Origin: a virus
Lineage: Duplodnaviria; Caudoviricetes
Length of the DNA stretch: 24,978 nucleotides
IMG/VR virus record: IMGVR_UViG_3300007231_000044
Span: 1 to 24,978 of that record
Reading direction: 5' to 3' (one strand)
Positions 1 through 21,011 of this stretch are shown here, piece after piece. The notes beneath the pieces were generated by a model, which was given only the letters and a program-made list of their open reading frames with translations, was not told where the DNA came from and did no database searches. Both the position numbers and the translations under genes were made by a program. The first letter of the stretch is position 1; the number at the start of each line of letters is the position of its first letter.

Positions 1-665
1 CTAGAGCCAACAGATGTAATTTTAAGCCAGTCATTATCTGATGTAGACTCCTGATCTATGTTAAATGTTCTACTGCTTCCTGTTTGGTCTAGCCAAAAGT
101 AGCCTCCTGCGTATCCGTCTCCATCGTAGGTGACAACATTATCGTCTCCATCAATGTCCATGTAATTAGTGGCACCATCTACATCTATAGATGCAGTAAT
201 GTTATTGCCACCACCTTGCACAGTCCAATCTAAATCTAAGCTTGCTGCTAGTGCAGTCATGGCATGATTCAAAGTCATGGTGTTGGTATTGCCTGTGACT
301 TGTACGTTTACATTAGAACCATCAGCTCCAGTAGCGTTGGTCTCATCTGTACTCATATTGAACGTATTTGTGTCGCCAATAAATGAGAAGTAACCTGTGT
401 AGTTATCTGCCCAGATGTCTCCTAAGAATTTATTGGTATTACCTTTTTGTAATATATCTAAGGTCATAGTTGCACCATCGATATCTAATGCAGTCATAGA
501 ACCAGCAGCTGCGTCAGCTCCACCAATGATGTTGCCACTACCCCCAACTTGTTCGATATCTAAATTAGATGTAGCACCTGACTGATCTATAAATATCTCG
601 TTGTCAGCTGCATAAAAAGGTGTTGCTATTAAAAGCAACAATATAAGTAGTCTATTTGTTCTCAC
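1..665 (-). CDS. Secreted curlin-like (CsgA/CsgB-like) beta-solenoid repeat protein, 3' end outside window
   Basis: Not in the ORF track. Manual translation from GTG at 665 (GGGAG 7 nt upstream) stays open to base 1: MRTNRLLILLLLIATPFYAA-DNEIFIDQSGATSNLDIEQVGGSGNIIG...LDILQKGNTNKF...FSFIGDTNTF...VNVQVTGNTNTM...WTVQGGGNNIT...MDIDGDDNVV...WLDQTGSSRTFNIDQ. It has a Sec signal peptide plus degenerate (Q)xGxxN repeats, and overlaps the csgG stop by 14 bp. Confidence 0.75.
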   Translation of the reverse strand, partial: MRTNRLLILLLLIATPFYAADNEIFIDQSGATSNLDIEQVGGSGNIIGGADAAAGSMTALDIDGATMTLDILQKGNTNKFLGDIWADNYTGYFSFIGDTNTFNMSTDETNATGADGSNVNVQVTGNTNTMTLNHAMTALAASLDLDWTVQGGGNNITASIDVDGATNYMDIDGDDNVVTYDGDGYAGGYFWLDQTGSSRTFNIDQESTSDNDWLKITSVGS

Positions 666-1464
666 TTCTTTGCTCCCAATACCCTAGTTCTAACCCTTCG
701 AGTATTGTTTCTAAGACCGCTGTTTCCACAGCAGCCTGTAATGCTATATTTACTGATTCATTTTCTACTATCCCGCTCTCAATTTCAACTAATTCAGTGT
801 TGTTACTGTAGAACTTAAATACGTCTTGTGATATAGAAGCACTCAATACACTCTTGGTTACTAATACTTCTAACAAAACTTTACCTGTGCTCACTGAAAC
901 AGTGCGTAAGGAAACAGTAATACTGTCCTGCCTGTATTCTTTTGATGCACCTATACCAAGATACCTGGCCCCAGCTCCGCCACTCTTAACATTAGTTTCA
1001 TAACCTATAACTCCACCTTGCATAAGAAGCCCTGCAAACAATAAAGGTTTAAGCTTTTGTTTTTCTTCGAAATTTTCTCTGGTTGTACGTATGAGCTGTC
1101 GTTCTTTAGTCAGATCGTCTAGGCCTTTGCGCTCTACTACATCAAAGAAGTTTGAATGTTTAAGCGCTCTTATTAAATAAGCATCGGGAGAGGAAGTAAT
1201 AGCTGTACTAAAACTAGCGTACTGACTATTAGATCTACGTTGGCCTGTATTATCTTGAAAACTTTTTGCATAAACGGCAACGATAGGTTTTTTGACAGGG
1301 GGTCCAATGTCTTTAAGTCCTTGTACAATTAAAGAACTTACTTCTGCAGGTTCAATGTCCCGCATTGGAGGTATACCATTGTCTAATGGGTCTACAATTA
1401 AAGCACAGCTAGAAACTAAAAGAACCGAGAGGAACAGTAATTTCCGTTGTATTGCCTTCTTCAT
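652..1464 (-). CDS. csgG: Curli production assembly/transport outer-membrane pore lipoprotein CsgG
   Basis: Lipobox LVSSC (Cys20). Motifs VAVY..FQDNTGQ...FSTAI, LIRALKHSNFFDVVERKGLDDLTKERQLIR, GGVIGYETNVKSGGAGARYLGIG, YRQDSITVSLRTVSVSTG and E.E.G...NE correspond to the CsgG motifs I know from E. coli. Confidence 0.93.
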   Translation of the reverse strand: MKKAIQRKLLFLSVLLVSSCALIVDPLDNGIPPMRDIEPAEVSSLIVQGLKDIGPPVKKPIVAVYAKSFQDNTGQRRSNSQYASFSTAITSSPDAYLIRALKHSNFFDVVERKGLDDLTKERQLIRTTRENFEEKQKLKPLLFAGLLMQGGVIGYETNVKSGGAGARYLGIGASKEYRQDSITVSLRTVSVSTGKVLLEVLVTKSVLSASISQDVFKFYSNNTELVEIESGIVENESVNIALQAAVETAVLETILEGLELGYWEQRSENK

Positions 1465-1879
1465 CTGTAATTATTAAAGTTACCTTATCGTCTTCTACCC
1501 TATATTCTATGGTATTACCTTCTAATTCTAAAACACCAAAATCAGATGAGGACTCACCAAATAAATTATCTACCAGCTGTCTACTGAGCTGTGCATATAT
1601 TCTACTCTCTAGGTTACGTATGAACCTAGCTAATGTTGTGTTCTCTGCTTCTCTTTCTAAGTCTTCTTGATAGGCTCTAATCTCTTCTCGTACAGCTTCT
1701 ATCCTGTTGAACTCTTGATTTTCTATAGTTAGATAGTGACTAGATGTATTCTGCCCTGAGAAACTAGGGCTTTTAAACTTGTGCGTCATTTCATCAGCTT
1801 GAACTGATAAAACAATAAACATAGTAAGTATGATAAAAGATATAAACAATATTTCGTCAGGTCGTTTAGGAGCCATCAA
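1409..1879 (-). CDS. csgF: Curli assembly protein CsgF-like
   Basis: Signal peptide ending VQA. The mature N-terminus DEMTHKFKSPSFSG resembles CsgF GTMTFQFRNPNFGG. It also has an FIRNLESRIYAQLSRQL helix and C-terminal beta strands ending TEITVP, and lies directly upstream of csgG. Confidence 0.85.
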   Translation of the reverse strand: MMAPKRPDEILFISFIILTMFIVLSVQADEMTHKFKSPSFSGQNTSSHYLTIENQEFNRIEAVREEIRAYQEDLEREAENTTLARFIRNLESRIYAQLSRQLVDNLFGESSSDFGVLELEGNTIEYRVEDDKVTLIITDEEGNTTEITVPLGSFSF

Positions 1880-2226
1880 TCTTTCCTTTGATCGTCTCTG
1901 TCAGCTTTAGCGATCTTATCTATATCAATAAGATTAGGAACTCCTAAGATTGTTTTAATCATAGTGTCTTGTCTAATGATTTCATTATCAAGTGATCTGA
2001 TCCTATCTATCAATGCCACTAGTATTCCATGTTGAGAGTCTAGCTTGCCTCCTAACCTTTCTTCCATTGCTGCTATTTGTACTGCAACTTTTTCATCTAA
2101 GACGTCTAGCTTTGTTTCCATGCCATCAATAATTCTATTGATAAGTTTCCATATAAAAAAACCTAAACCTAGTGCCGCCGCTATAGGGAAGCCTACTTCA
2201 TTAATAAATGTAACTGTCTGTTCCAT
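1876..2226 (-). CDS. Small single-TM membrane protein with coiled coil (YvrJ/BhlA-like N-terminus), first gene of the curli-like operon
   Basis: INEVGFPIAAALGLGFFIW hydrophobic helix followed by a heptad-like charged segment. ATGA overlap with csgF. Confidence 0.7.
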   Translation of the reverse strand: MEQTVTFINEVGFPIAAALGLGFFIWKLINRIIDGMETKLDVLDEKVAVQIAAMEERLGGKLDSQHGILVALIDRIRSLDNEIIRQDTMIKTILGVPNLIDIDKIAKADRDDQRKD

Positions 2227-2238
2227 ATTCTTTTGTAA

Positions 2239-2267
2239 ATTATACTCTTATTGGAACCATCTGCGAA
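2239..2267 (-). promoter_or_regulatory. Putative sigma70 promoter for the curli-like operon
   Basis: On the minus strand, TTCGCA (2267-2262), a 17 nt spacer, then TATAAT (2244-2239), 12 nt upstream of the ATG at 2226. No Shine-Dalgarno sequence. Confidence 0.5.
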
Positions 2268-3696
2268 CTTCTCCAAGAACTTCGTTGCTGATCTTAACTT
2301 TACTCAATAGATTTTTAAGTATCTGTTCGTCAACTGTACCTTGTGATACTAAGTCTACATAGGTACAACTGCGTTCTTGACCAATCCTATGTATGCGGTC
2401 CTCTGCTTGTACCCTAAGTTCTAGGTCATAAGAGTTAGAGTAAAATATCATAGTGCTGGCTTCTGTTAATGTAATACCTCTACCACCTGTTTGTGGGTTA
2501 GATACAAAATATCTAAGTTCACTGTCAGGATCCTGGAACTTTTCTATAATATTTTGTCGTTCGTCCTGAGGTGTTTTGCCGTAGTAAGATGCTACAGAGC
2601 CTTGACCAAACTTCTCAGTAATAGCTCTTTCTAATTCTTGTATATCTGTCTGGAAGACGGCAAAGATTACAACCTTACCTGACGTTTCTTCTAATAGATC
2701 TAATACTGCTTGCACTCTGTTGTTCTTTAATATGATTGTCTCGCCATCCTCATTACGTAAGCTACCTGCTACTACTTGTTGTAGTCGCATAAGCTGAGTA
2801 AGTACGTTCATAGTCGAAAACAATTCATCATCTAATACCATTAATGCTTCACGTTTCATTGTGCTGTATGCTTTGCTCTGCTCCTCTGTAAGTTCTACAT
2901 GCCTTCTTACATAAACTTTCTCAGGTAAGTCCAAGCATTCATCTTTTATCTTACGTATAGAAAAATCCCTAATCGATTGTTGTAGTTCTTCTAACTTTTG
3001 AAAACCTACTATCTGTTGAAAGGCATGTTGCCCCATTTGTTTACGTTGAGTTATGGCATACCTGGCTTGAAAGGCATAGAAACTACTGAAGCCTAATAGG
3101 TTTGGTGATAAAAAATAACATTGTGAATACAGATCAAGAGGTGCTTTTGTTATAGGAAATCCTGTAAGTATTCTTCTGTAGTCGGCTAATGGTGCTAACT
3201 TAATAAGATGTTGTGTGCGTTTGGCTTTTGGATTCTTAATCGTAGTCGATTCATCTACGGCCATCATTACATCATGCGTAACCATAAACTCCTCTACAAA
3301 TTTACATGCCTTGACTGTAGCAAAAGCTTCTACATTGACTAAAAAAATATTAAGTGTGCCTTCACTAGGTTCGTTAACCATCGTCTTAAAATCATGTAAC
3401 CATTTTTGTGTGTGGTTTGGTTGCCATACTAATACGTTACGTTCTATGCGATCAGGTAAATGTTTATTTACCTCGTTAATATCCCAATTACGTAAATTAC
3501 CTTTAGGCGACACAATCAATAGCCCTGATATTTTACCTTCTTCAAATAAAATGCCTGCGTTGTCTAGGAGAATTTTTGATTTGCCTAAGCCCATTTCCAA
3601 AAACAATGCAAATAGGTTACGATGATAACTCTCTTGGAGAGTTTCTAACTGATGTTGATATGGTTCGCTCTTGAATTCGTAGTTTGTTATTTCCAT
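2248..3696 (-). CDS. SNF2-family (SF2) helicase/ATPase
   Basis: Walker A EMGLGKS, Walker B AVDES, motif III ILTGFP, motif V GGRGITL, motif VI QAEDRIHRIGQ. Confidence 0.93.
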   Translation of the reverse strand: MEITNYEFKSEPYQHQLETLQESYHRNLFALFLEMGLGKSKILLDNAGILFEEGKISGLLIVSPKGNLRNWDINEVNKHLPDRIERNVLVWQPNHTQKWLHDFKTMVNEPSEGTLNIFLVNVEAFATVKACKFVEEFMVTHDVMMAVDESTTIKNPKAKRTQHLIKLAPLADYRRILTGFPITKAPLDLYSQCYFLSPNLLGFSSFYAFQARYAITQRKQMGQHAFQQIVGFQKLEELQQSIRDFSIRKIKDECLDLPEKVYVRRHVELTEEQSKAYSTMKREALMVLDDELFSTMNVLTQLMRLQQVVAGSLRNEDGETIILKNNRVQAVLDLLEETSGKVVIFAVFQTDIQELERAITEKFGQGSVASYYGKTPQDERQNIIEKFQDPDSELRYFVSNPQTGGRGITLTEASTMIFYSNSYDLELRVQAEDRIHRIGQERSCTYVDLVSQGTVDEQILKNLLSKVKISNEVLGEVRRWFQ

Positions 3697-3745
3697 AAGT
3701 CCCGTCCTTTATTCTTCGTTATATATTCAAACACATCTTAAAGTG

Positions 3746-3773
3746 TTGCAATGTATTATATAGATGGTATAGT
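3746..3773 (+). promoter_or_regulatory. Rightward sigma70 promoter for the replication module
   Basis: TTGCAA (3746-3751), a 16 nt spacer, then TATAGT (3768-3773), with an extended -10 TG at 3765-3766. Confidence 0.6.
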
Positions 3774-3783
3774 GCATTGGCAA
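3755..3783 (-). promoter_or_regulatory. Leftward sigma70 promoter for the SNF2 helicase
   Basis: On the minus strand, TTGCCA (3783-3778), a 17 nt spacer, then TATAAT (3760-3755); near consensus. Confidence 0.7.
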
Positions 3784-3819
3784 CTTTAAGTTGATAACGA
3801 AATAAAGAAGGAGTGAGCA

Positions 3820-4392
3820 ATGACAAATATCAAAGATCTTTTTGAGAAAAGCACAACAAAAGCAGTAGAGGAAATATCAGAAGACTCTATCAAAGACCTC
3901 AGTGAATTATGCCAGAAACTATTAAGAGTAGAAGCAGAGGTTGGTAACACAGAAGAAAGACTAAAACGTTTGAAAGACCAACAAAGGGAACTTTCAGAAC
4001 AACTCATACCTGACAGACTGACACAACTAGGTGTGTCGGACCTTAAACTAAATGACGGTTCACGTATATCAGCTGAACCATTTTACAGTGCCAGAATATC
4101 TGTAGCGAATCTAGAAGAAGCGCACAACTGGTTACGAGATAACGGACACGGAGACATTATCAAAAACACTATGACACTTTCGTTTGGTCAAGGTGAAGAT
4201 AGTCTCGCAAAAGAATTGGTGGCATTGTGTAAATCTGAGGGTTTTGTACCTACAGAAAAAGAAGCAGTGCATCCAAGCACCCTGAAGGCATTTGTTAAAG
4301 AACAAATAGAATCAGGTAACGGTGAGTTTGACCAAGAGATACAGAAAAAGTTTTCTGTGTACCTCGGCAAGCGCACTAAAATTAATCGTTGA
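3820..4392 (+). CDS. Conserved phage replication-module protein (N-terminal coiled coil, C-terminal VHPSTLKAFVKE motif)
   Basis: Strong SD AAGGAG. The motifs WLRDNGHGDIIKN and VHPSTLKAFVKEQ recur in phage proteins encoded next to SSB and polymerase genes. Function unknown. Confidence 0.75.
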   Translation: MTNIKDLFEKSTTKAVEEISEDSIKDLSELCQKLLRVEAEVGNTEERLKRLKDQQRELSEQLIPDRLTQLGVSDLKLNDGSRISAEPFYSARISVANLEEAHNWLRDNGHGDIIKNTMTLSFGQGEDSLAKELVALCKSEGFVPTEKEAVHPSTLKAFVKEQIESGNGEFDQEIQKKFSVYLGKRTKINR

Positions 4393-4437
4393 ACGAAGAA
4401 AGAAGGAGAAAAAAATGGCAACGAAGAAAGAAGGAGA
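4392..4437 (+). repeat. 18-bp direct repeat flanking a start codon
   Basis: AACGAAGAAAGAAGGAGA at 4392-4409 and again at 4420-4437, with the ATG at 4415 between them. Confidence 0.9.
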
Positions 4438-5203
4438 GGGGACAGCCTTAACGTCCCTATTTGAAAACATCGAAGAGAAAGGTTTCGGAGATGTAGGTGC
4501 GGAAGACCTCAAGACTCCGCGTATCAGCATAGTGCAAGCAATGTCTCCGCAAAGACAAAAAGCCAGCGCAGATTATGTTGCAGACGCAGAGGAAGGAGAT
4601 ATCTTCTATTCAGGAAACAGTACCTGTGTAAATGGAGACAAAGGTCTTTCATTTTTACCTGTCTACTATAACAAAACTTTAGTCGAGTGGCGTTTGCGTG
4701 AGAAAGGTGGAGGTCTTGTAACCGTGCATCCTGCAGATTCAGATCTATTGAATCGATGCCAACGTGATAGCCAAGGTAGATTAGTTACGCCAAGTGGGGA
4801 AACCCAGCTGACGACAACTGCTAATCATTATGGTTACGCGCTTATTGATGATACACCCCAAAGGTGTGTTATTAATATGACTGGTTCACAACTTAAACAC
4901 TCGCGTAGTTGGAATACCCTGATACAGGGAACCAAACTGCAAGGTGCAAAAGGAGCTTATACTCCACCTGCATACTCGCATTGGTATCTTCTAAAGACTC
5001 AAGTGGAATCCAATGATCGTGGGTCGTGGTATAGCTATAATATTACGCAGGAACGGGTATTGGCCGAGAAAGAAATCGACCTCTTTAAAGAGGCAGAAGA
5101 ATTCTCTAAGTTTTGTTCCGATGGAGGAATGGACCAGTTACCTGGTCAGAAGACCTCCACAATAGAAGATAAGTCTGGGTCCAAACAGGATTGGGAAGAC
5201 TAA
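4415..5203 (+). CDS. Putative single-stranded DNA-binding/annealing protein
   Basis: Start moved from 4322 to the ATG at 4415 (SD AAGGAG). Motif DLKTPRISIVQAMSPQ, aromatic-rich beta segments, acidic C-terminal tail QDWED, position in the replication module, and a terminator after it as expected for an abundant protein. Confidence 0.6.
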   Translation: MATKKEGEGTALTSLFENIEEKGFGDVGAEDLKTPRISIVQAMSPQRQKASADYVADAEEGDIFYSGNSTCVNGDKGLSFLPVYYNKTLVEWRLREKGGGLVTVHPADSDLLNRCQRDSQGRLVTPSGETQLTTTANHYGYALIDDTPQRCVINMTGSQLKHSRSWNTLIQGTKLQGAKGAYTPPAYSHWYLLKTQVESNDRGSWYSYNITQERVLAEKEIDLFKEAEEFSKFCSDGGMDQLPGQKTSTIEDKSGSKQDWED

Positions 5204-5210
5204 CTTCATT

Positions 5211-5252
5211 AAGCTCCAGCATTCACTCACTCAATGCTGGAGCTTTCTTTTT
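5211..5252 (+). terminator. Rho-independent terminator
   Basis: Perfect 13-bp stem AAGCTCCAGCATT / AATGCTGGAGCTT with a 9-nt loop, followed by TCTTTTT. Confidence 0.85.
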
Positions 5253-5260
5253 GAGTACGC

Positions 5261-6850
5261 ATGGAAGAAATCGCAAATAAATTTAAGCAAGTATTCTCAG
5301 GATTAGAGAGAGCTCACGGTATATATGAAATCACGGGACAAAAGAACACCGCGAAAGGTGTTAAGAAAGACGGCAGAGGACGGACACTACAAGAGCCTTT
5401 GACGGTAGATCTTTGGGAGAGACATTTAAAAGGAGACCTGTCTATTGGTGTAATACCATTGACTGATGATGAGACTTGCAAATGGGGTTGTATAGACGTT
5501 GACGAATACCCCATAGATACAAATGAAATACTGCAAAGGATAGAAGAAATGAATCTACCTTTGTTGCCGTGCATGACTAAATCAGGCGGAGTACATTTGT
5601 TTTTATTTACCAAGGAACCGATATCAGCGTTTAAGTTCCAATCTAAACTAGAGGAGATAGCAGCAGCTATGGGAAGAACAGGAGACGAGATCTTTCCTAA
5701 GCAATACGAGTGGTCTAAACAACTACCGAAAGAAAACCAGACAGGCAACTGGTTAAACATGCCTTACTTTGCAGGAGAAGACACAACAAGATACGCACTA
5801 AAACCTGATGGGGAAGCTGCGGACATAGAAGAATTTTTTGATTTAGTAGATAAAGTATCTATAACCGAAAGACAGTTAGATAGTTTTATAGCTGTAAAGA
5901 AAAGCAGAAAGAAACAGATTACTAAGCAAGGCAGTATGTGGGATGAGGCCCCACCTTGTTTAATACACATGAAACTTAACGGAATACCTGAGGGTATGCG
6001 TAACAATGCCTTACTTAATTATGGTGTGCTCTTACGCAAAGTGCATCCTGAAGGAGAGGAATGGAAAGACAAACTCCAGGAGATAAACAAAACAGTTTGC
6101 ACAAAGGCTCTGTCTCACAGTGAGCTTAATACAATTATACAAAGCTTAGAAAAATCAGAGTATAGATACCAATGCGGTAAACAACCTTTGGTAGATTTTT
6201 GTCAGAGTGGTATCTGCGTAACTAGAAGATATGGCATTGATGCATCTGAGCGTGATCCTAACTTTGGTGGCTTGCGTAAGTATCTAACTGATCCACCGCT
6301 TTGGCATTTAGATGTAGACGGTAGAACAATTGTTTTAGATACAAAGCAACTGCATAACTTCTCTATGTATCAACAAAGATGTATGGAGGTTCTTAATATA
6401 TGTCCACCTGATGTAAAGAAAACAGATTGGGTAGCCAAGTTAAATGCTTTGCTACAAGACGTACAAGAAGTAGAAGTCCCTGCTGATATGACAAAGCAAG
6501 GGTTACTACAAGAAGCTATCTATGAATTCTGCAGACTGTCTGAGTCTTCTTCTAGATTATCTATCGCATCTAATGGTGTGTTTAGATACGAAGAGGACAA
6601 GACTAAGCAGTGGTGGTTTACAGGTAGAGATGCAGTGATCTTTATCCAAGAGTTTAAGAAGATGCGACACATAAAAGAAGCAGAGGTATTTACTGAGCTT
6701 AAAAACATGGGAGCTACAAACATAGCTAAATACATCGACAGGACTGTTGGTAACAAAAAGATTTGGATGCTAGACATATACGAGATAGATGAAGATGCTG
6801 TTGACTCTAGTGACTTTAAATCACAAAAGGAGCCTTTGGCATGGGAATAA
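5261..6850 (+). CDS. Archaeo-eukaryotic-type primase (prim-pol) with PriCT-like domain
   Basis: AEP motifs WGCIDVD, TKSGGVHLFLF and NWLNMPY, plus PPCL...GMRNNALLNYG (PriCT-like) and a Cys cluster C.K.PL..FC...IC. Confidence 0.8.
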   Translation: MEEIANKFKQVFSGLERAHGIYEITGQKNTAKGVKKDGRGRTLQEPLTVDLWERHLKGDLSIGVIPLTDDETCKWGCIDVDEYPIDTNEILQRIEEMNLPLLPCMTKSGGVHLFLFTKEPISAFKFQSKLEEIAAAMGRTGDEIFPKQYEWSKQLPKENQTGNWLNMPYFAGEDTTRYALKPDGEAADIEEFFDLVDKVSITERQLDSFIAVKKSRKKQITKQGSMWDEAPPCLIHMKLNGIPEGMRNNALLNYGVLLRKVHPEGEEWKDKLQEINKTVCTKALSHSELNTIIQSLEKSEYRYQCGKQPLVDFCQSGICVTRRYGIDASERDPNFGGLRKYLTDPPLWHLDVDGRTIVLDTKQLHNFSMYQQRCMEVLNICPPDVKKTDWVAKLNALLQDVQEVEVPADMTKQGLLQEAIYEFCRLSESSSRLSIASNGVFRYEEDKTKQWWFTGRDAVIFIQEFKKMRHIKEAEVFTELKNMGATNIAKYIDRTVGNKKIWMLDIYEIDEDAVDSSDFKSQKEPLAWE

Positions 6851-7119
6851 GTAGAGAAGAAATTTCTGGGTACGTAGAAGAATTAGGTATAGATGGCATT
6901 TTGTTAGCAGATGGATTAGAGGATGCTTTTATAGGTGTGTCGTGTGGTTTTGGTCCGAGTAAAGCTGTGTATGACTGGGATAAATGCGTAGAAATATTTA
7001 TGACTAGAGACAAAATGACCTACGAAGAAGCTGTTGAGTGGATAGACTTTAATGTAACAGGTGCTTATGTTGGAGAGCAAACACCAGAATTTATATTTTT
7101 ATATGACAAACGTAACTAA
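6841..7119 (+). CDS. Conserved hypothetical phage protein
   Basis: SD AAGGAG upstream. Pattern ADGLEDAFIG...AVYD..KC...MTYEEAVEWIDFNV.GAYVGEQTP, which I recognise from aquatic phages. Confidence 0.75.
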   Translation: MGISREEISGYVEELGIDGILLADGLEDAFIGVSCGFGPSKAVYDWDKCVEIFMTRDKMTYEEAVEWIDFNVTGAYVGEQTPEFIFLYDKRN

Positions 7120-8650
7120 ATACTTTGGGCCTCCTGGAACAGGAAAGACTACAACTCTTATGAACATTATAGAGAAGAGTCTTGATGAAGGCGTTGCACC
7201 TGAGAGGATAGCGTTTATATCTTTTTCTGTAAAAGCAGCTGAGGAAGGAAAGAACAGAGCGAATATACGATTGGGTCTGGGCTTTGATGAGATGCCTTAC
7301 TTCTGTACGAGCCATGCTTTCTGCAAAAGAATTATGGGTATATCACAAGTCATGGGTGGTAGAGATGTATTTGATTTCTTAGAAGATTATGAGTTTAACC
7401 TTACTAAGAAGTATGGAACAAATGCGAGAGGCCTGAGGTCCGTGGTCCAAGATCCCTACTTCGATATCATAGAACGTGCGAAGGCTAACTGTTGCACATT
7501 AAAAGAAGAGCGATTGTCTTTAGAGAAAGAACAACGTAAAGGAGTTGTAGTCCACATGCTAGAACCTATAGCAGAAGCTTGGGAGTCGTTTAGACTTTCT
7601 AGAGTACCTGTTGTCTATTCGTTTGCTGACATGATAAACAAATTCCTAGACGATGGTACGGCTCCTGAATTAGATCTATTAATTGTTGATGAAGCTCAAG
7701 ACTTAGCAGAACTAAACTGGAGGCTTGTAGAAAAGTTAGCTTTGAATGCTAAAAAGACTTACATAGCTGGAGACGATGATCAGGCTATTTACGAATGGAA
7801 TGGAGCAAAGCCACAGCGTTTTGTAAATTACGTAGGCGAAAGCATTGTGTTAGATCAGTCCTATCGTATACCTGGCAAAGTACATCCTATAGCTGAGCGT
7901 ATATCTAAGCGCATAATTTCTAGAGAACCTAAGACTTATAAACCTAGAGAAGAATCAGGCACAGTCAGTAAGGTCAGTTCAGTAGAACTATTGCCTTTGC
8001 GGGAGGGTAACTGGCTCGTGCTTGCTTCTTGTGACTATATGTTGACGGATGCATCTAAGGGATACAACGTCAGAAAGTATTTGATAGACAATGGTTTTGC
8101 TTTTGCTCACAACAACTTTCGTTATATACCTAGAAAGATGAGCATGGCTATACAGATTTGGGAGAGACTAAACAATAAAGAAGAGATCACGTTATCAGAG
8201 CTTGATGATCTTTATGGGTATTTAGGTAAGACAGGAGTGAAGAGAGGATTCATCACACAGGTTTCACAGGCTCCGAACCAAGGGCAGTCGTTATCACTGC
8301 AACAGATTATAGATAACTATGGACTCAAACCAGAATGTCTTGGCCAAGAATGGCAGACTGTGTTTGATAAAACGATAGACGTAGAAAGAAGAAGTTTTAT
8401 AGAGAAAGCATTAAAGAACAAAGAAGATTTATTAGGAGAACCACGCATTGTCATTTCGACTATACATCAGGCAAAAGGTGGAGAAGCGGAGAACGTAGCT
8501 GTGTACTTAGACTTATCTAAATCACAGAAGCGGACTTCTATGTTACAACCCGATGGGCTACACAGACAGTTCTATGTTGCGATTACACGTACAATAGAAA
8601 ACCTATATCTGATACAGGCCCAAGATGATTATTACAGGTACGTTATATGA
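7103..8650 (+). CDS. UvrD/Rep-like SF1 helicase
   Basis: Likely start at ATG 7103. Motifs GPPGTGKTT, IVDEAQD, AGDDDQAIYEWNGA, LDQSYR, STIHQAKGGE and FYVAITR. Confidence 0.93.
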   Translation: MTNVTKYFGPPGTGKTTTLMNIIEKSLDEGVAPERIAFISFSVKAAEEGKNRANIRLGLGFDEMPYFCTSHAFCKRIMGISQVMGGRDVFDFLEDYEFNLTKKYGTNARGLRSVVQDPYFDIIERAKANCCTLKEERLSLEKEQRKGVVVHMLEPIAEAWESFRLSRVPVVYSFADMINKFLDDGTAPELDLLIVDEAQDLAELNWRLVEKLALNAKKTYIAGDDDQAIYEWNGAKPQRFVNYVGESIVLDQSYRIPGKVHPIAERISKRIISREPKTYKPREESGTVSKVSSVELLPLREGNWLVLASCDYMLTDASKGYNVRKYLIDNGFAFAHNNFRYIPRKMSMAIQIWERLNNKEEITLSELDDLYGYLGKTGVKRGFITQVSQAPNQGQSLSLQQIIDNYGLKPECLGQEWQTVFDKTIDVERRSFIEKALKNKEDLLGEPRIVISTIHQAKGGEAENVAVYLDLSKSQKRTSMLQPDGLHRQFYVAITRTIENLYLIQAQDDYYRYVI

Positions 8651-10515
8651 GTTTTGTTTACAAGCCCCCAACGGAGTGGATACCACCCGATAGTTTTCCA
8701 ACAGAGAAATTATGTCAGGCAACAGAGATTGCCATTGACCTTGAGACTAGAGATCCAAGTTTAAAAGAACTAGGACCAGGTTACATTAGAGGTGATGGCG
8801 AGGTCGTCGGTATTTCTTTTGCAATAGACGGTTACGAAGATTACTTTCCGTTTGCACATGAGCAAGGATTTAACTTTTCTAAAAAGAAAGTTATAGAGTT
8901 TACTAAAAAGATCTGCGCTACAGATAGTGACAAGATATTTCACAACTCTAGTTATGATGTTGGTTGGTTGACACGAGAAGGTGTGCCTATCAATGGCAGG
9001 ATTATCGATACGATGGTCGTTGCTCCTTTGATTGACGAGAACCAATACTGGTATTCATTGAATGCATTGGGTCGCGAATACATAAATGAAGGCAAGACTG
9101 AGGGAGAGCTAAATGCTGCTGCGGAGGAGTGGGGACTGGATCCTAAGGCTGAGATGTGGCGGTTACCGTCAGCTTATGTGGGTACTTATGCAACACAGGA
9201 CGCCGCCCTCACGCTTAAATTATGGAATCACTTTAAGATTTTATTAGAAGAACAAAACCTATGGAACGTGTTTGATTTAGAAATGCGAGTGCTTCCTGTC
9301 ATTCTTGCGATGAAACAAAAGGGTGTTCGTGTTGATACAGACAGAGCTCAGTCATTAAAGAAGCAGCTCATTAAAAGAGAGAAAGATATCGTTCAACAAA
9401 TTAAGGATGAGTCAGGTGTTCCAGAACTACAACTGTGGGCAGCCAACTCATTAGCAAAAGTATTTGATGCAATGAACCTTACGTATCTTAGGACACCAAC
9501 AGGAATGCCTAGTTTTACAAAAGCTTTCCTGGAGAACCACTCTCATCCTATAGCTAATTTGATACGCGAAGCTAGAGAAGTAAACAAGACACACAGCACG
9601 TTTATTGATTCCATACTAAAACATGCACATAACGGAAGGATACATGCAGAGATACGTCAGCTCAAAGGTGAGTCAGGCGGTACAGTCACAGGTCGGTTGT
9701 CCATGAGCAATCCGAACTTACAACAAGTGCCTGCACGTAATAAAGAGATTGGCCCTTTGATTAGATCTTTGTTCTTACCAGAAGAAGGAGAGCTGTGGTG
9801 CTCTGCTGACTTCTCACAACAAGAACCTAGAATACTGACACACTATGCTAGTAGATCTAAGTACGACGGAGCAGATGCTATTGCTGAGGCGTACCATGCT
9901 GGTGATGCAGACTTTCATCAAGAGGTAGCTAACTTGGTAGATATTGACAGGAAGACAGCAAAGACAATAGGACTTGGCATCATGTATGGCATGGGCAAAG
10001 GTAAGTTAGCAGATCAGCTAGGCGTTACTGTAGACGAGGCATCAGAGATCTTAGCTAAGTTTAATACCTATGCACCGTTTGTCAGGCAGTTAGCTGACTC
10101 GGTTATGCGTAGTGCAAACTCAAAAGGTTACATCAAAACGATACTAGGGAGGCGCTGTCACTTTGATATGTGGGAGCCTTTGAAGTATGGAACAGGTAGA
10201 CCGATGAAACACAAAGAAGCCGTGCATGAATATAACGGCGAGATCAAAAGAGCGTTTGTCTACAAAGCGTTAAATAAACTAATTCAAGGTTCAGCAGCAG
10301 ATATGACTAAGCAGGCCATGGTCCATTGTTATGAGGCGGGTTACCTTCCGCTTTTGCAAGTCCATGACGAGCTGGTGTTCTCTATAAAGTCTGACGAAGA
10401 TGTAGAAAACATCTGTCGTTTAATGGAGGAAGCTGTAGCTTTGGATGTCCCAAACAAAGTTGATGCTGAGATTGGAAAGAATTGGGGCGACTCAATGGAA
10501 GCTAAGAATAATTGA
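8647..10515 (+). CDS. polA: Family A DNA polymerase with 3'-5' exonuclease domain (no 5'-3' exonuclease)
   Basis: ExoI IDLET, ExoII HNSSYD, ExoIII YATQD; TGRLSMSNPNLQQVP; motif A DFSQQEPR; motif B RKTAKTIGLGIMYG; motif C QVHDEL. Confidence 0.96.
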   Translation: MSFVYKPPTEWIPPDSFPTEKLCQATEIAIDLETRDPSLKELGPGYIRGDGEVVGISFAIDGYEDYFPFAHEQGFNFSKKKVIEFTKKICATDSDKIFHNSSYDVGWLTREGVPINGRIIDTMVVAPLIDENQYWYSLNALGREYINEGKTEGELNAAAEEWGLDPKAEMWRLPSAYVGTYATQDAALTLKLWNHFKILLEEQNLWNVFDLEMRVLPVILAMKQKGVRVDTDRAQSLKKQLIKREKDIVQQIKDESGVPELQLWAANSLAKVFDAMNLTYLRTPTGMPSFTKAFLENHSHPIANLIREAREVNKTHSTFIDSILKHAHNGRIHAEIRQLKGESGGTVTGRLSMSNPNLQQVPARNKEIGPLIRSLFLPEEGELWCSADFSQQEPRILTHYASRSKYDGADAIAEAYHAGDADFHQEVANLVDIDRKTAKTIGLGIMYGMGKGKLADQLGVTVDEASEILAKFNTYAPFVRQLADSVMRSANSKGYIKTILGRRCHFDMWEPLKYGTGRPMKHKEAVHEYNGEIKRAFVYKALNKLIQGSAADMTKQAMVHCYEAGYLPLLQVHDELVFSIKSDEDVENICRLMEEAVALDVPNKVDAEIGKNWGDSMEAKNN

Positions 10516-10542
10516 GATATATCTTAGATTGTAATGTATAAT
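10512..10542 (+). promoter_or_regulatory. Possible promoter/operator upstream of the RHH-like gene
   Basis: TATAAT at 10537-10542, TTGAGA at 10512-10517 (19-nt spacing, suboptimal), and the palindrome AGATATATCT at 10515-10524. Confidence 0.4.
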
Positions 10543-10561
10543 GTTATCTACAGGAGTAAAA

Positions 10562-10732
10562 ATGGATACAACTAAATGGAAAAGCGTAGCGATACGTAAA
10601 GAGATTGTGGAAGCGGCTGCTATTATCGGTGAAAAAACTGAAAGGCCCACCAGTAATGTGTTTGCGTATGCGGTAAAAAGATTACAAGATGATCTTGAAA
10701 GCGGACGCTTGAACGACGTACCTAAGGTTTAA
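10562..10732 (+). CDS. Small ribbon-helix-helix-like DNA-binding protein
   Basis: Start moved to ATG 10562 (AGGAG at 10552-10556). An alternating beta strand KWKSVAI is followed by two predicted helices (KEIVEAAAIIGEKT, TSNVFAYAVKRL). Confidence 0.55.
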   Translation: MDTTKWKSVAIRKEIVEAAAIIGEKTERPTSNVFAYAVKRLQDDLESGRLNDVPKV

Positions 10733-10734
10733 TC

Positions 10735-11451
10735 ATGAAACATGAAATACTGTACGAGTCTCCGTACGAGTACGGTGTGTTCTCCAGCGAAGATAGACGC
10801 AGCGGTCGGTTCTACGACTGCAACGGAGTAAAGCTCCCGTCTGTTACTACTATATTATCTGGCACTAAAGAAGGTGACTTCTTGAAGAAGTGGATAGATA
10901 AAGTAGGTGAGGAAGAAGCTGAGCGTATCAGAACAGAAGCTGCAACTAGGGGATCGTACATGCACGACATCCTGGAGAAGCAGCTAGTTAACGGTGGCAT
11001 CTGGGATTTTGTACCTAGAAACGCAGAAGAGAAACGTGCTTACAAAATGGCTTGTACTATCATGGACCAAGGGCTACCTAACGTATCACAAGTGTATGGT
11101 TGTGAGATATCTTTGTACTACCCTGATCGCTATGCAGGTAAAGCTGACGTGATTGGTGTACACAATGATGATCTGTCTATCATGGACTTTAAACAAACCA
11201 ACAAACCTAAACGCAGACAATGGGTGTGGGACTACTTCCAACAGTTAGCTGCTTACGCACTTGCACACAACGAGCTGTACGGCACAGACATACAGAAAGG
11301 TGTAATCATGATGTGTTCTGTAGACTGCCTATACCAGGAGTTTATTCTTGAAGGTGACGAGTTTAAGAAAGCTGCCGAAGCTTGGATGGAACGCGTAGAA
11401 AAGTTTAGTCTTCCAGATCTAGAATCCCAAGATTCTCTTCAAGATTCCTAG
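10735..11451 (+). CDS. PD-(D/E)XK exonuclease (lambda-exo/RecB/MGME1-like)
   Basis: LPSVTTILS, RGSYMH, E..LY, YAGKAD, IMDFKQT and QLAAY motifs. Confidence 0.88.
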   Translation: MKHEILYESPYEYGVFSSEDRRSGRFYDCNGVKLPSVTTILSGTKEGDFLKKWIDKVGEEEAERIRTEAATRGSYMHDILEKQLVNGGIWDFVPRNAEEKRAYKMACTIMDQGLPNVSQVYGCEISLYYPDRYAGKADVIGVHNDDLSIMDFKQTNKPKRRQWVWDYFQQLAAYALAHNELYGTDIQKGVIMMCSVDCLYQEFILEGDEFKKAAEAWMERVEKFSLPDLESQDSLQDS

Positions 11452-14400
11452 ATAACTCTGGGTTTCCTGTAAGAGAAACTTTTTGTCTTTCAATCAGATC
11501 GTACTTACGATCAAGTTCTGATTCAGGCCATCTTCTAGAAAGTCTAAAGTCTTCTGCTTTTTTCTCAAAGTTTTTAACTGTACTTTTTGGAACAGGCCAA
11601 GCAGTAAAGATACCTCTTTCAATATTATCGTAAAAGTCTTTTCCTGCTCCTGTCCTTTGCACAAAACTTTTTAGTCTATCTTCGTATACGTCTTGGTTTA
11701 CATCCCATGTTTTTAAAGCTTGCAGCTCAAAATATAAACCTTGTTGTATTTGGAACCAAGAACGTTGTGCATCTTCCCAATCCTTTATAACATCTTCTTC
11801 GGTTAACTGTTCAGCTGATGCGTATTCTCGGTTTAAGTTTTGTTTAGTATATTGATTAAATTCTTTTACTCTATTAGATATAATAAAAGGCATTGATACA
11901 TCAGGGTTTACTTCTGAATTTGAGAATCCCATTAATTTTGCTGCAGCTCTTACAAATGGCATAGTTTTACCATAACGATTTAAAGCTGCATCTCCCTCTT
12001 GCAAAGACCATATTACATCATTAACTTGCCTATAAGCTCCAGGTCCAGCTTTGTTAAACGCATACTCTAACCCTGTAGTAAATTGATCTGAAAAATCATC
12101 TTGTTCGTTCCAAATAGGTTTTATATTTAAAGGATTATCATCGTTTTGGTTGTTTATTAAATCTAAAGCTAACTTAGCAGAAATACTTTCTTGCATGTAC
12201 GTTTCGGTGTACTCAGCAATAAATTGACCCATAGCTTTTCTTATAGCTGCTGGGTCTCCTTTGCCACGAGTTTCTCTTAAAGTGCCTCCTATAACGTTAT
12301 AGAATTTACCTATTGCTTCGTAAGGGAAAAAATAATTTGTGTTTAAGTAAGGAGTTTCTTTTCCTTTTGGACCCAACCAAATTATTCTATCTCTATCTTG
12401 ATAAGGTGCTATAAGCTCATTCGCAGCATAAGTATCATCATCGTCTACATTAAAGATTGTCTGACTTGCTTTAGCTAACGCTGCAACTAATCCATGTGTT
12501 GCTACGTATCCACCAATTGCTCGTTCTTGAGCACGTTGTAAAAATGGATTAGATGGCAGCTCTATGCCTTGAGCAGCAGCTATAGCTTGTATTTCTGGAT
12601 TAGGTGAGTAAGTTCCCATTCTGTAAACTAATTGAGCAGAGTTAGCAGTCGTTCTAGCTATTTCTGTAGGGAAAGCTATAAAGTTACCAATTGGGAGATT
12701 TGCGTAATACTCTCTAAATTTACCTACATAATCATAGTTAGGCATAGTATTTCTAACCATGTAAGCTGATACATGATCTATGTATTTATCTAAGTCCGTA
12801 ACATTTCTTAAAACTGTTCCTTGGTCTTGAACATAGTTAGAAAGTTTTTCTGTAATACCACTTTTTGTTTTTAAACTTTTAGAAAAGTCTCTTAGCACTC
12901 TAAGTTTTAAATCGTCAGAACCTCCTATGTTATCTACCATATCTTTAAATTTTCGTCTTTCAGATAAGAACGCAAGTATTTTAAAGAAATCATCTGATGC
13001 AGCATACGCTCGTCTAGCTCCTCTATTTAAACTTAACACGTAATTATCAAATGCTTTACCTGGACCTGTTTGGCCTAAGCCATATAAAAGATTACTTATT
13101 TGTTCAATAGATTTAAAATTTGTAGGAGAGTTTGCTACACGAGTAAATACACCTAAAGCATCGTTCGCCCTAACTTCTGTGTTAACAATTCCAAGTTGTT
13201 GCATGTATCCCCAAGCTGAATTGTATTCATCAACGTTACCTGAAATTTCTCCTGTTTCAGGGTTGTATTGCACATTGCCGAATAAATCATTACCAATTAA
13301 CTGTATTGCGTTTTGTATTTCACCTTCTTTACCAAACATTCCTCTAAAATGTCCGTTGAAACCATACATAATTCCAGCTCCATACAGGTTTCTCATTTGT
13401 GTACCAGGACTCAATACAATAATTCCGTATTGAGTTATAGCTTTTGCTGTGCCAAACGTATTTGCAAGGGCGTTAAGGATTGCGTCTTCTCCTCTTATAG
13501 TTCCCCCTGACAAAGCTTCAGCCATAGTTTTTGTAGTGTAAAATCCTTCTAAAGGATTAAACTCATCTCCTGTTTCTATCTTAATAGGGTATTCTTTGGT
13601 AGCCACTGGAGAAAACCATTGCTCTCCTGGTAATTCACTAAGTCTTTTAACCTCTTGAAAAAACGTAGCATTCTCTACAGTTCTAGCCATTCGTGCAAAA
13701 GAAGTTGCAGCAATCAGTTCAGGTTCTTTTATCTCTCCCAACAATTGTCTTACAGCGTAAGGTATTTCGCCACGTTGAGTTAACAACTTGTTGATTTTAA
13801 TATCTGCTTTTTCGCCTTTATTTTTTCCTTTTAATAAAGCAGCCATTTTTGAAACGTCTGTTGCACTTTCGTACAAAGATCTATCTATCCATTCGTTTAC
13901 TGCTTCTTCGGCTCTTTCTTTTCTTATTTCAAGAGCACGACTTTCTACTTGTTCATTAGTTGCAACTGAGCCTAACTCACGTCTTGCATCAGATCTATAA
14001 TCAGGCATTCTAGATCTAAACTTATACTCCATAGAAATTACTGCTTTATTATACAAATCTGTCATTGTCCTATTAGGCACAGTAGTTTTAGCTCCTACTT
14101 TTTCTGCAACTTTAAAAGGCAAGTTTTGTATAGATTCAACCATCATCTGGCCTTTTGGATTCCAGCCTAAATTTGGAGAAAAGAATTTATATGATCTTGT
14201 TACATAAGTGTTTAAATTATGTTCTACCACAGCGCTTAAATTTGGATCTAAACTTTCTGGAGGTATTTCTTTTAAAAGTCTTCCACTAATAGCATCAATA
14301 CCTTTTCTAATTTTAAGTGCGGGTTTTCTTAATGAATCAGGCAATTGCCTTGCAGCTACTTTAGTTGTTTGTATGTCTTGCAATTGTCCTTCTATAAATT

Positions 14401-16789: not shown

Positions 16790-16792
16790 AAC

Positions 16793-18073
16793 TTATACTA
16801 CTGGAAATGTAATCCATTTATTAAGTTCGTCTGGTAAATAAAATGACTTGTCATTGGCTTCTCTAGCTTCTTTTTCTTTTCCAAGAAGAATTTTATAGTA
16901 GTCTAATAAGTTTCCTGCTCCACCTGTACCAGGAATAGCTCTTTCTTGATCTTGGTATGCAGGAGGAAGTTTGCCACCTGTTTGATTTATAAAAAGTTGT
17001 AGAGCTTTACCAAACTTTCCGTCTTGAGCTTTAACTGCTTCATCCCATTGGTTTTGTAAAAGTTCTCTTTCTTCTTTTTGTTTTGTTATTTCTTGTAAAG
17101 AAAAGGCTTCTGATTCTTTAGCTGTCAAGTCAAAGTCTAACTCTCCACTTGTAGTGCCTGCTCTTGCTTGTGCATTAAGTATTGCTTTTTGTATATCTAT
17201 TTCCCCTACTAAAGCTTTGTCTAATGCTGCTGTCTCTGCTTGTTTTCCTGCTGTTAATCCAGCAAGGTATCTACCAGAAGGTGATCCAACTGTCGCTACA
17301 CCTGCACGAGCTGCTGCTCCTATTTGAGGAGCTAATGTTCTTCTTTCTGCTTGCAATTCTTCAAGTTTAGATAAGTCTATTTGCGAACCAGCTGTAGCTT
17401 GATCTTGTTCTAGTTTGGCTATTCGAGCTCTTCTCATAAAAAATTCTTGTATGTCTGGACTATATTTATTCCATTCCTCTAAAGGAAATCTACCTTCTCC
17501 AAAAAACTCATCTAGTTGTTCTTGAGTTAATACGACTCCGCCACTTTGCATGCCAGGAACGTCTGTCATAAACTCAGCAAGAAACTGTTCAGTAAACAGT
17601 TGGTCCTCAGGATCTACTTTGTCTACTTTAAATTGTTTGCGTAAATTGTTTAGTTGATTGTTATAGGCTACGCTCATGCTTTTTAAATACTTGCCAATAT
17701 TTTCTACACCCGCTTTTGATATGTAATTATCTATCTCAGATTTAAAGGTTGCTTTTAAATCATCTACGGCCATTCTAAAACCATCAGGTCCTTGGTCCAT
17801 CGTTGCTTCTTCTTTGACCTCTACCTTTTCGTCCATCATAGGCATTGGCATATCAGGGACATCTGGATTACTAACAGAAGCCATCATGTTTAATGACGCG
17901 TTTAATTCATTATCACCTTCTTCAAATAACTGTGTTTGGGGGACGACACCGCCTGTTTCCATACCAGGGTAAGGTACAGAACCGCCAGCCATCATAGGTA
18001 CAGGATCAAGGCCAGACATGATACCTTGCTCTCTATTAGAGAACATTTTTCTTTTCTTCCACTGCTCGTGCAT
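16793..18073 (-). CDS. Putative internal virion/ejection protein
   Basis: 426 aa with coiled-coil character and three MxxGG motifs. TAATG-coupled to the upstream gene. Confidence 0.55.
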   Translation of the reverse strand: MHEQWKKRKMFSNREQGIMSGLDPVPMMAGGSVPYPGMETGGVVPQTQLFEEGDNELNASLNMMASVSNPDVPDMPMPMMDEKVEVKEEATMDQGPDGFRMAVDDLKATFKSEIDNYISKAGVENIGKYLKSMSVAYNNQLNNLRKQFKVDKVDPEDQLFTEQFLAEFMTDVPGMQSGGVVLTQEQLDEFFGEGRFPLEEWNKYSPDIQEFFMRRARIAKLEQDQATAGSQIDLSKLEELQAERRTLAPQIGAAARAGVATVGSPSGRYLAGLTAGKQAETAALDKALVGEIDIQKAILNAQARAGTTSGELDFDLTAKESEAFSLQEITKQKEERELLQNQWDEAVKAQDGKFGKALQLFINQTGGKLPPAYQDQERAIPGTGGAGNLLDYYKILLGKEKEAREANDKSFYLPDELNKWITFPVV

Positions 18074-19278: not shown

Positions 19279-20105
19279 TAGCTCATCCTCTCTGCTTGTT
19301 TCATTAGACTGTATAAGTTTTTAGCGCCTATATTATCAGTAGCTTTTCTTGTCATAACAAACTCACCTGGTTCTAGTCTTGCTAGTGTTATGTCTCCAGG
19401 TCCTTCGTTCATAGATGCTAAACCACCCTGTTTCATTTCAGGTGGTGGTGCATTAGCGTAACCTACACCTGGCATTAGTGCAGGTTGTAAGTTAAAAATT
19501 CTGTAGTCAGGCATACTGCCTAATCCTTGATCACCATAAGCTTCTTGTCCAATTGGTACTTTTATATCGTCTTTTCTTTGTTCTTTCAGCTGGTTATACA
19601 AAAGCAATTGTCCTATAGGTGAGTTAGCAAAGTCTGTAATGCCTCCGCCTACTGAACTCATAATTCCTTGAGCTTTGTTTTTGCCTTTTTTACCGCCAAC
19701 AAGACCTAGAATAGTATCTAGTAAAGTACTGGATGTGTCCGCATTTGCTATTAGATCTTGTGTAGAGTCCATAAACAAATCGGGATAAAGTTCTTTTACA
19801 GTATCGTCATAGTTTGTATTCTCATTAAATAAATTATCATAAACATCGCTAAAATCTACGCCAGGTTTGTAGTCAAAGTCTAAATTAGCTATGCCATCAT
19901 CATCGCTACCAAACAAATAACTGTAATCATCGTCGCCAAACAAACTTGAAACATCAAAGTCCAAAGAAGTTATACCAGAGTTGCTAGGATCATAATCAAA
20001 ATTTAAATTAACTGCACCATCACCAGAATCGTCAAACAGGTAGCTGTAATCTGTTGTATCGTCGTCTTTAAAAAGATCGTCTAAAAAATCAAAATTGTAT
20101 GACAT
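19278..20105 (-). CDS. Putative virion protein with acidic/aromatic repeats and a C-terminal ARLEPGEFV motif
   Basis: Start moved to ATG 20105, which removes the overlap with the upstream gene and has AGGT upstream. DYSYLF repeats. C-terminal D.TLARLEPGEFVM..KA...IG motif typical of phage virion proteins. Confidence 0.6.
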   Translation of the reverse strand: MSYNFDFLDDLFKDDDTTDYSYLFDDSGDGAVNLNFDYDPSNSGITSLDFDVSSLFGDDDYSYLFGSDDDGIANLDFDYKPGVDFSDVYDNLFNENTNYDDTVKELYPDLFMDSTQDLIANADTSSTLLDTILGLVGGKKGKNKAQGIMSSVGGGITDFANSPIGQLLLYNQLKEQRKDDIKVPIGQEAYGDQGLGSMPDYRIFNLQPALMPGVGYANAPPPEMKQGGLASMNEGPGDITLARLEPGEFVMTRKATDNIGAKNLYSLMKQAERMS

Positions 20106-20130
20106 AACATTACCTATATTATCGTTTTTT

Positions 20131-21003: not shown

Positions 21004-21011
21004 TATTTTTC

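Follow-up and report, generated by a model that had tools for sequence, protein, structure and literature searches.

A curli-like gene block of an HTVC023P-type phage that may form a sensor chain from the cell surface to a CHASE2 adenylate cyclase

The stretch of 24,978 nt analysed here (from here: the window) is an entire virus contig, IMG/VR record IMGVR_UViG_3300007231_000044, which begins with genes of the curli, or type VIII, secretion type. Four intact open reading frames (ORFs) occupy positions 2226 to 1 on the minus strand. They encode a 116-aa membrane protein (1876..2226; phrog_18771, E 3.6e-15, unknown function), a CsgF-family adaptor with a signal peptide (1409..1876; PF10614, E 7.6e-18), a CsgG-family outer-membrane pore lipoprotein (652..1464; PF03783, E 3.6e-51) and a curlin-like beta-solenoid protein that is predicted to be secreted (1..665), with 221 of its 238 codons before the contig end. 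Because the window is the whole contig, the operon is truncated at base 1. Inside the repeat gene, in its +1 frame, lie the first 11 codons (MTGLKLHLLAL) of a further, FecR-domain gene (1..34, minus strand). Membrane gene and csgF overlap by 1 (or 4) nt, the csgF ATG overlapping the upstream TGA by 1 nt and a TTG at 1879 being the alternative start; csgF and csgG overlap by 56 nt, csgG and the repeat gene by 14 nt. The SNF2 helicase gene upstream stops at 2248, 21 nt before the first operon start at 2226, and the GC content of the block, 36–40%, is similar to that of its flanks. ORF coordinates and domain matches, including the profile searches for CsgG and CsgF, thus bear out a preliminary description of this DNA, made from the letters alone, which had seen four overlapping genes 21 bp after an SNF2 gene.

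The sequence left of base 1 could be retrieved from a second IMG/VR contig, L001, which matches window positions 1–11464 at 99.9% in one unbroken match. There the 238-aa repeat protein is complete and is followed by a gene for a 371-aa FecR-domain protein (L001 11431–12546; PF04773, E 9.7e-14), a gene for a 581-aa CHASE2 adenylate cyclase (L001 12543–14288; CHASE2 E 2.2e-28, cyclase E 1.9e-20) and then phage genes. The system is hence not the compact exporter of pore, adaptor and substrate that had been proposed, since the contig end hides the FecR gene and the cyclase, which covary with the rest. The operon–SNF2 join is real, because L001 matches without a break and contigs of two other public runs (X1, 1928–4200; X5, 1785–3627) bridge the junction at 2230–2250, X1 differing from the window at 1 position. 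A chimeric join near 2230–2250, which the preliminary description had asked to be checked, is ruled out by these three contigs. A chromosomal origin is ruled out as well, as phage genes and not host genes flank the operon in L001.

The four operon genes almost certainly make up the start of the phage 'viral curli' block that is already in print. This block was first reported in myophages (Zaragoza-Solas 2020, PMC7029224). Wittmers 2022 (PMC9599517) then described CsgF, CsgG and CsgA/B, with no CsgC/D/E, in nine HTVC023P-type podovirus genomes, in the order 'HK', CsgF, CsgG, CsgA/B, FecR, often with a second CsgA/B and a cyclase. The system had been described for HTVC023P-type phages before, and the locus represents no new kind; because of that publication, a short-tailed phage with its own substrate, put forward earlier as the novel aspect, is not new. 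The earlier mention of csgF and csgG in HTVC008M proved right: the GenBank records of HTVC008M (NC_020484) and Melnitz (MZ577097) have the same gene order as the window block. The block is common in ocean phages, and three papers give three differing functional guesses, those of Wittmers 2022 being superinfection, sibling capture and a channel. A paper on pelagiphage transcriptomes (PMC12753301) does not mention curli or csg.

Domain matches confirmed the PolA and SNF2 proteins noticed in the window. The best PolA matches, at 50–54%, were 023Pt_psg01 (54%), HTVC023P (53%), DSL-LC04 and HTVC027P, with the next at 38%; by PolA, the phage backbone belongs to the HTVC023P-type group. The podovirus assignment rests on these relatives, because the libraries named no tail or ejection genes and recognised phrog_3287 as the only virion structural family in the window; of the podovirus-like genome first described, the kinship stands and the naming of tail and ejection genes does not. 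DSL-LC04, a member of the same PolA group, was recorded on Gammaproteobacteria. As noted before, csgE, csgC and csgD are not recognisable: the 27 window ORFs and 7 L001 ORFs gave no match to CsgC, CsgD or CsgE, nor was CsgE matched in five of five related phage records, four of them at least 95% complete. The block is like the viral type VIII secretion systems of HTVC023P-type podoviruses and pelagimyophages in genes, order, absence of CsgC/D/E and PolA group, but it differs from these relatives by one 116-aa membrane gene instead of a pair, by the lack of a second curlin and by its place behind SNF2.

Our survey comprised 235 BLAST-annotated loci, called podo-type or myo-type according to whether their FecR protein is closest to the window type or to that of HTVC008M and Melnitz; some podo-type loci lie in other backbones. 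Among the 68 loci sharing the window-type CsgG, the repeat gene comes next in 66 and the FecR gene is present in 58, the remaining contigs ending first. The CsgG match covers positions 7–208 of the 210 of PF03783, and the protein fits the NCBIfam model for CsgG (E 1.8e-49) far better than that for HfaB (E 2.3e-4). It is 46% identical to CsgG of HTVC008M and has a lipobox Cys20, with a lipobox-like Cys in 170 of 190 complete homologs. CsgF scored 65.4 bits against a Pfam cut-off of 25.8, and the motif F-x-x-P-x-F-x-G is present in 168 of 178 complete CsgF homologs.

By the pattern of open frames, CsgG and FecR each have a predicted signal peptide that is dual-coded, lying in the +1 frame at the 3′ end of the gene upstream. 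In the stretch 1409..1464 (minus strand), which encodes the CsgF C-terminus and the CsgG signal peptide, every one of the 24 distinct tails keeps the second frame open and hydrophobic, and synonymous shuffles equalled it in 0–3.5% of trials (0.4% for the window sequence). The same holds for the 86-nt overlap of the repeat and FecR genes in 32 of 32 distinct tails, with 0–1.05% of shuffles equalling it; all these tails come from the first 68 loci, which are related, so that the counts are not independent. In HTVC008M and Melnitz, by contrast, these are separate or nearly separate genes, with no such overlap in HTVC008M. A frameshift fusion of curlin and FecR at the 86-nt overlap was set aside: what the overlap frame encodes is a hydrophobic leader, and in myophages FecR comes with a signal peptide of its own.

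One regularity concerns the FecR protein and the cyclase. FecR was near-complete in 212 loci (130 podo-type, 82 myo-type). The podo-type loci included 105 with a cyclase, 23 without one over at least 900 nt of flank and 2 with too little flank; after removal of 4 contigs fetched twice and the 2 short-flank loci, 102 cyclase-bearing and 22 cyclase-less loci remained. A single FecR-domain allele marks the cyclase-less loci, with 22 of 22 carrying it against 0 of 102 cyclase-bearing ones, and an allele call made on sequence only matches cyclase absence in 124/124 loci. Behind FecR, the cyclase-less loci showed no remnant of a cyclase. On trees of the 97 loci with all parts (18 cyclase-less; shuffled mean ~16.5), the cyclase-less label requires 1 change for the FecR N-domain, 9 for the FecR C-part and 13 each for the repeat protein and CsgG; the C-part tracks the label less than the N-domain although it is closer to the cyclase gene. 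Independent pairs on the backbone tree agree with the rule in 8/8 cases (p 0.008). Same-backbone pairs differ chiefly at FecR residues ~50–250, which in sliding windows appear as a swapped tract, flanked on both sides by backbone-type sequence in 3 of 4 pairs, with a more diverged C-part in the fourth.

The two ends of FecR also covary with different partners. In a dereplicated set of cyclase-bearing loci (44 of 65 podo-type, 22 of 28 myo-type), FecR residues 51–215 correlate with CHASE2 at a partial r of 0.50 in both types, residues 251–371 at 0.06 (podo-type) and 0.00 (myo-type). For the repeat protein the picture is reversed, with a partial r of 0.35 and 0.29 for residues 251–371 vs 0.02 and 0.11 for residues 51–215. 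Covariation thus ties the N-domain to CHASE2 and the C-domain to the repeat protein, opposite to the order of the genes. Linkage does not explain this, because it predicts the opposite pattern. Neither the allele rule nor the covariation was found in print in the literature covered, outside which lie supplements and most subscription papers.

Tuning of the cyclase-less allele to host receptors received no support: against 8 host FecR domains, the cyclase-less domains (16) scored a mean of 73.6 bits, the cyclase-bearing ones (81) 68.8 and the myo-type ones (54) 76.2, and the host domains form a clade of their own, separate from phage FecR. In five loci (L050–L054, e.g. L052 12537–14951) the FecR and cyclase genes converge from opposite strands, separated by a small heat-shock-like gene; the FecR domains of these loci still group with those of cyclase-bearing loci.

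The FecR model begins with a confident N-terminal domain (~185 residues), continues in an acidic linker of low confidence and ends in a small beta domain. Its N-domain matches the cell-surface-signalling domain of PupR (6ovm; Z 16.3, root-mean-square deviation (rmsd) 2.4, 134 aligned) and a Parabacteroides anti-sigma domain (Z 14.3). The last strands resemble one half of a curlin repeat, in which Ile and Gln are invariant. RGT, containing Gly-Thr, is invariant in 212/212 FecR proteins; E. coli FecR self-cleaves at Gly-Thr (PMC12036975), and the phage motif resembles that site, pointing to a putative cleavage at Gly138-Thr139. Among proteins of 771–2200 aa we found 77 relatives, in many of which cadherin or RTX repeats follow an N-terminal FecR domain; longer homologs also show a low-complexity stalk. 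By estimate, ~2,900 stored IMG/VR stretches match the FecR patterns. A GTDB scan with the phage FecR profile, which needs close peptide matches, gave 8 loci, of which 7 are, by their neighbours, phage contigs in metagenome-assembled genomes (MAGs) of unrelated taxa and 1 is an unrelated bacterial FecR; neither a host nor a bacterial copy of the complete block came out of it.

The FecR fold and the absence of a CsgE gate in 5/5 records are what speaks for an ungated channel that takes up iron carriers, cofactors or small molecules, with FecR as an iron regulator (Wittmers 2022); a myophage-type locus, L077, moreover adjoins porin-like and phosphate-binding-like genes by inspection. We hold this to be very improbable. 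The FecR protein has a signal peptide and lacks the cytoplasmic sigma-binding part of FecR-type anti-sigma factors, its FecR domain directly following a short hydrophobic leader; among the window and L001 ORFs scanned, neither a sigma factor nor a TonB receptor turned up, and the repeat protein is always retained.

The cyclase itself appears intact. D416, K456, D460, R533 and K568 are invariant in 131/131 sequences, N529 is kept in 127/131 and position 522 is S, T or D in 131/131. In class III cyclases we take these roles to be two metal-binding Asp, a substrate Lys with Thr/Ser/Asp, and a transition-state Asn with Arg. By these residues the phage protein qualifies as a class III adenylate cyclase and is predicted to make cyclic AMP (cAMP).

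FecR-domain proteins stand beside CHASE2 enzymes in bacteria as well. Both plasmid FecR matches (2/2) adjoin CHASE2 cyclases. CHASE2 is present in 25 of 121 sampled SAR11-family genomes, the sample being taken from the family of a MAG titled Pelagibacter. Ten CHASE2 regions were examined, of which 2 are phage contigs with the curli block and 8 are chromosomal; all 8 chromosomal regions have a FecR-domain gene nearby, several also barrel or TPR genes. In Sinorhizobium, the outer-membrane receptor NsrA signals to the CHASE2 cyclase CyaK (PMC7529298, PMC13001267); a FecR domain in NsrA itself was not seen in the passages covered. The phage block shares with these Sinorhizobium and SAR11-family modules an exported FecR-domain protein beside a CHASE2 inner-membrane enzyme. 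The bacterial modules often include an outer-membrane protein; the phage has a curli pore and solenoid in place of the TPR/beta-barrel protein.

Two further arrangements were seen among the bacterial loci. The SAR11-family chromosomal loci (L239–L244, L247, L248) combine FecR, CHASE2-SpoIIE and barrel/TPR or autotransporter genes, some also with STAS and anti-sigma kinase genes and pilins; they are apparently a trans-envelope partner-switching system in a streamlined lineage, present in ~22 of the 121 sampled genomes. On an Ensifer plasmid (L238 9264–18533), a CHASE2 cyclase, a TPR protein, a FecR protein, an ABC export system and a cyclic nucleotide monophosphate (cNMP)-binding protein are clustered.

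The repeat protein, as modelled, has a curlin-like shape and few curlin motifs. Its AlphaFold2 model, built on a 16-row alignment, is a near all-beta solenoid with a mean confidence (pLDDT) of 76. The top structural match is Pontibacter CsgA (8c50; Z 16.7, rmsd 9.2, 201 aligned), tied with SufB/D-type helices (Z 16.0–16.2, rmsd ~3). Foldseek returned nothing for the repeat model at E ≤0.001, and profile searches of PDB sequences with the repeat or FecR alignments gave nothing meaningful. The Pfam curlin repeat did not match the window/L001 protein and reached E 0.79 in one relative. Using the motif N-x-h-x-h-x-Q of Sleutel 2023 (PMC10192328), with its degenerate class allowed, we counted 2 strict motifs in 238 aa; canonical motifs per 100 aa number 1.0 in podo-type repeat proteins vs 1.6 in the myophage second curlin. 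Two Cys stand within the last 30 residues of 118/118 podo-type repeat proteins vs 0/75 myo-type first repeat proteins, and near the end of 59/59 myo-type second curlins; the Cys pair of the window protein falls beyond the window. A second curlin 3′ of FecR occurs in 0/130 podo-type vs 65/82 myo-type rows. The repeat protein is, on its model, a curlin-like, degenerate candidate substrate; of the pore, adaptor and candidate substrate described earlier, the first two are firm and the third is curlin-like by model, with no Pfam curlin match.

With CsgG and CsgF families and a predicted two-sided beta-solenoid best matching CsgA, the system is like bacterial curli; it differs in its single degenerate subunit with a terminal Cys pair, in the lack of a Pfam curlin match and of CsgE, and in its coupling to FecR and a CHASE2 cyclase. 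Classical curli export (the preliminary description; Wittmers 2022; Zaragoza-Solas 2020) would have the repeat protein polymerise into amyloid fibres that aggregate or shield infected cells, with FecR and cyclase merely regulating or riding along. This is a serious rival that we nevertheless consider improbable. It agrees with the intact CsgG and CsgF, with CsgA as best match of the substrate model, with the persistence of cyclase-less variants and with the myophage counterparts, which do match the Pfam curlin repeat (first repeat protein of Melnitz, E 8.6e-6). It fits poorly with just 2 strict motifs and a conserved C-terminal Cys pair, with podo-type loci that have no second curlin behind FecR, with the covariation of the FecR C-domain with the repeat protein and with the report that Melnitz-infected cultures showed no clumping (Buchholz 2022, PMC9004378).

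In HTVC008M (L069 8462–9787) the second curlin bears a PA14 domain (E 2.7e-6); across myo-type loci its length ranges from ~110 to 500 aa, which would suit a ligand-binding tip that varies.

The reading that we favour is that the block works as a sensor chain from the surface to the cytoplasm, across the envelope of the infected cell and ending in cAMP; we give it about an even chance of being correct. From family knowledge, CsgG and CsgF would form a pore in the host outer membrane. The curlin-like solenoid would be exported through it and stay there as one subunit or a short capped stub. The exported FecR protein, judged by the covariation, would span between the two membranes, its C-domain with the curlin-like end strands holding the solenoid and its N-terminal FecR-fold domain contacting the periplasmic CHASE2 part. 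Surface contact or pull might then alter the activity of the cyclase, whose catalytic residues are intact; timing of lysis is a plausible output. This sensor chain is supported by the joint occurrence of the CsgG, repeat and FecR genes, the one-allele rule, the covariation, the PupR-like fold, the bacterial FecR/CHASE2 pairs, NsrA–CyaK, the cyclase residues, the degenerate repeat and the missing second curlin in podo-type loci. It is the most likely of the readings considered, ranking ahead of curli fibres, a lysis device and an uptake channel. If it is true, a lytic phage installs its own surface-to-cytoplasm signalling with a curli pore as receptor. From the comparison follow two contacts open to test, between CHASE2 and the FecR N-domain and between the repeat protein and the FecR C-domain; matched and mismatched alleles for this exist in nature.

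Several points weigh against a sensor. The allele references were picked after the pattern had been noticed, and the backbone pairs count transfers and not origins, because the allele has one origin on its own tree; co-transfer with later crossovers could mimic part of the allele–cyclase pattern. The Mantel-type p-values of the covariation ignore shared ancestry and are inflated, so that the contrast weighs more than the numbers, and covariation does not demonstrate direct contact. A cyclase is absent from the whole record in 9/9 cyclase-less records, one of them 96% complete; these phages retain the pore and the solenoid together with a FecR allele that is strongly conserved, which means that the block has some function even without a cyclase of its own. 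No cNMP-binding domain was found in 5/5 related phage records, and such a domain is present in only 6/121 sampled SAR11-family genomes, which would leave the cAMP output without an explanation in a SAR11 host. Of the host CHASE2 proteins, the two scanned carry a SpoIIE phosphatase at the end and not, as in the phage, a cyclase, and the motif [IV]RG[TS] occurs in 0/8 host FecR domains. Degenerate curlins are also present in bacterial curli operons (PMC10192328), and a single subunit type could still polymerise.

A more specific version of the sensor chain can be proposed tentatively and is, as a joint reading, doubtful: the curli pore would be rebuilt as an outer receptor, with a self-cleaving FecR that is only partly secreted. 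The FecR-fold head would plug the pore from the periplasm and engage CHASE2, the acidic linker would be threaded through CsgG and the curlin-like tail would be clamped on the capped solenoid outside. Contact with a cell or virion might pull the plug and set cAMP, sensing crowding or superinfection and timing lysis; cyclase-less phages would use their dedicated FecR allele for another receptor, host-encoded or from a co-infecting phage. Among known systems, the retained RTX adhesins are similar: the plug of MpIBP keeps the partly secreted adhesin in its pore (PMC5550230; bioRxiv 10.1101/198937). The first ~90 residues of the FecR model weakly resemble the N-terminal periplasmic plug of MpIBP (5ix9; Z 7.0, rmsd 2.4, 72 aligned; Foldseek E 9e-3), a Z of 7 being within the range given by common arrangements, so that the likeness is only a lead. 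Unlike MpIBP and LapA, which use type I secretion via TolC, the phage FecR has a signal peptide and a CsgG pore.

The gene at the published 'HK' position encodes a single-pass membrane protein with a C-terminal coiled coil and, from its charges, a presumed N-out/C-in topology. Both proteins of the small pair found in myophages are its homologs (BLAST E 1e-6 to 1e-16). The label 'histidine kinase' (Wittmers 2022) is rejected, the protein having 116 aa and no HisKA/HATPase match in Pfam or NCBIfam. Its sole His (His66) is kept in 38 of 43 distinct homologs and is dispensable, because the other 5 are without any His; the short paired forms have none in 72/143 cases. Atlas matches at a score of at least 0.97 were viral hypotheticals only, and the weaker leads, the BhlA holin (0.87) and a Mu releasin-like family (0.86), both lie below the 0.9 mark. 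In three loci, cargo genes lie between the membrane gene and csgF (L010 711–1695, L019 8286–9589, L013 6954–7489), including a 220-aa protein with a methyltransferase-like motif and small membrane proteins.

These two leads bear on a lysis role as proposed by Buchholz 2022, in which pore and small membrane protein would breach the envelope directly or time its breach in the manner of pinholins or spanins. A holin-like or lysozyme gene lies at most 1.2 kb downstream of the block in 53 of the 88 podo-type loci with such flank. In the window, by contrast, the block sits behind SNF2 with its own promoter candidate, the lysozyme and holin-like genes being at 20131–21860. Pinholins work at the inner membrane, unlike CsgG, a lipoprotein of the outer membrane, and the FecR–CHASE2 covariation is left unexplained unless lysis is the output of the sensor. 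A lysis device thus seems unlikely, less so than uptake. As to that gene pair, a protein with three transmembrane segments (phrog_1544), 'holin-like' by our own reading as it has no family name, lies near a phage lysozyme (PF00959) on the minus strand (20131–20622 and 21318–21860); the pair is directly 3′ of the curli block in many relatives and distant from it in the window.

Upstream of the operon, a sigma-70-like promoter candidate, TTCGCA-17-TATAAT, lies at 2239..2267 on the minus strand (L001 9198–9226), with 10/12 consensus matches. Its TATAAT is kept in 15/15 distinct upstream sequences in which the block follows SNF2 (73 examined). It stays a candidate only, because the promoter-like sites of the region total 24 vs 27.4 ± 5.4 expected, the chance level. 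Rfam gave no match in the window. One metatranscriptome run has short contigs on the operon, some near-identical, which may derive from DNA, in a run that was selected by this stretch. The metagenomes with the best DNA matches are labelled freshwater or aquatic, and one of them may be the source of the window.

Elsewhere in the window, four large minus-strand ORFs of 1794, 426, 401 and 301 aa (11405–20183) had no PHROGs match at E 1e-5 and no Pfam match above cut-off; by position, they are probably internal virion or ejection proteins. In one further locus (L076, GC 52%), the whole block adjoins, by inspection, an integrase-like and an excisionase-like gene, and therefore a temperate phage may carry it.

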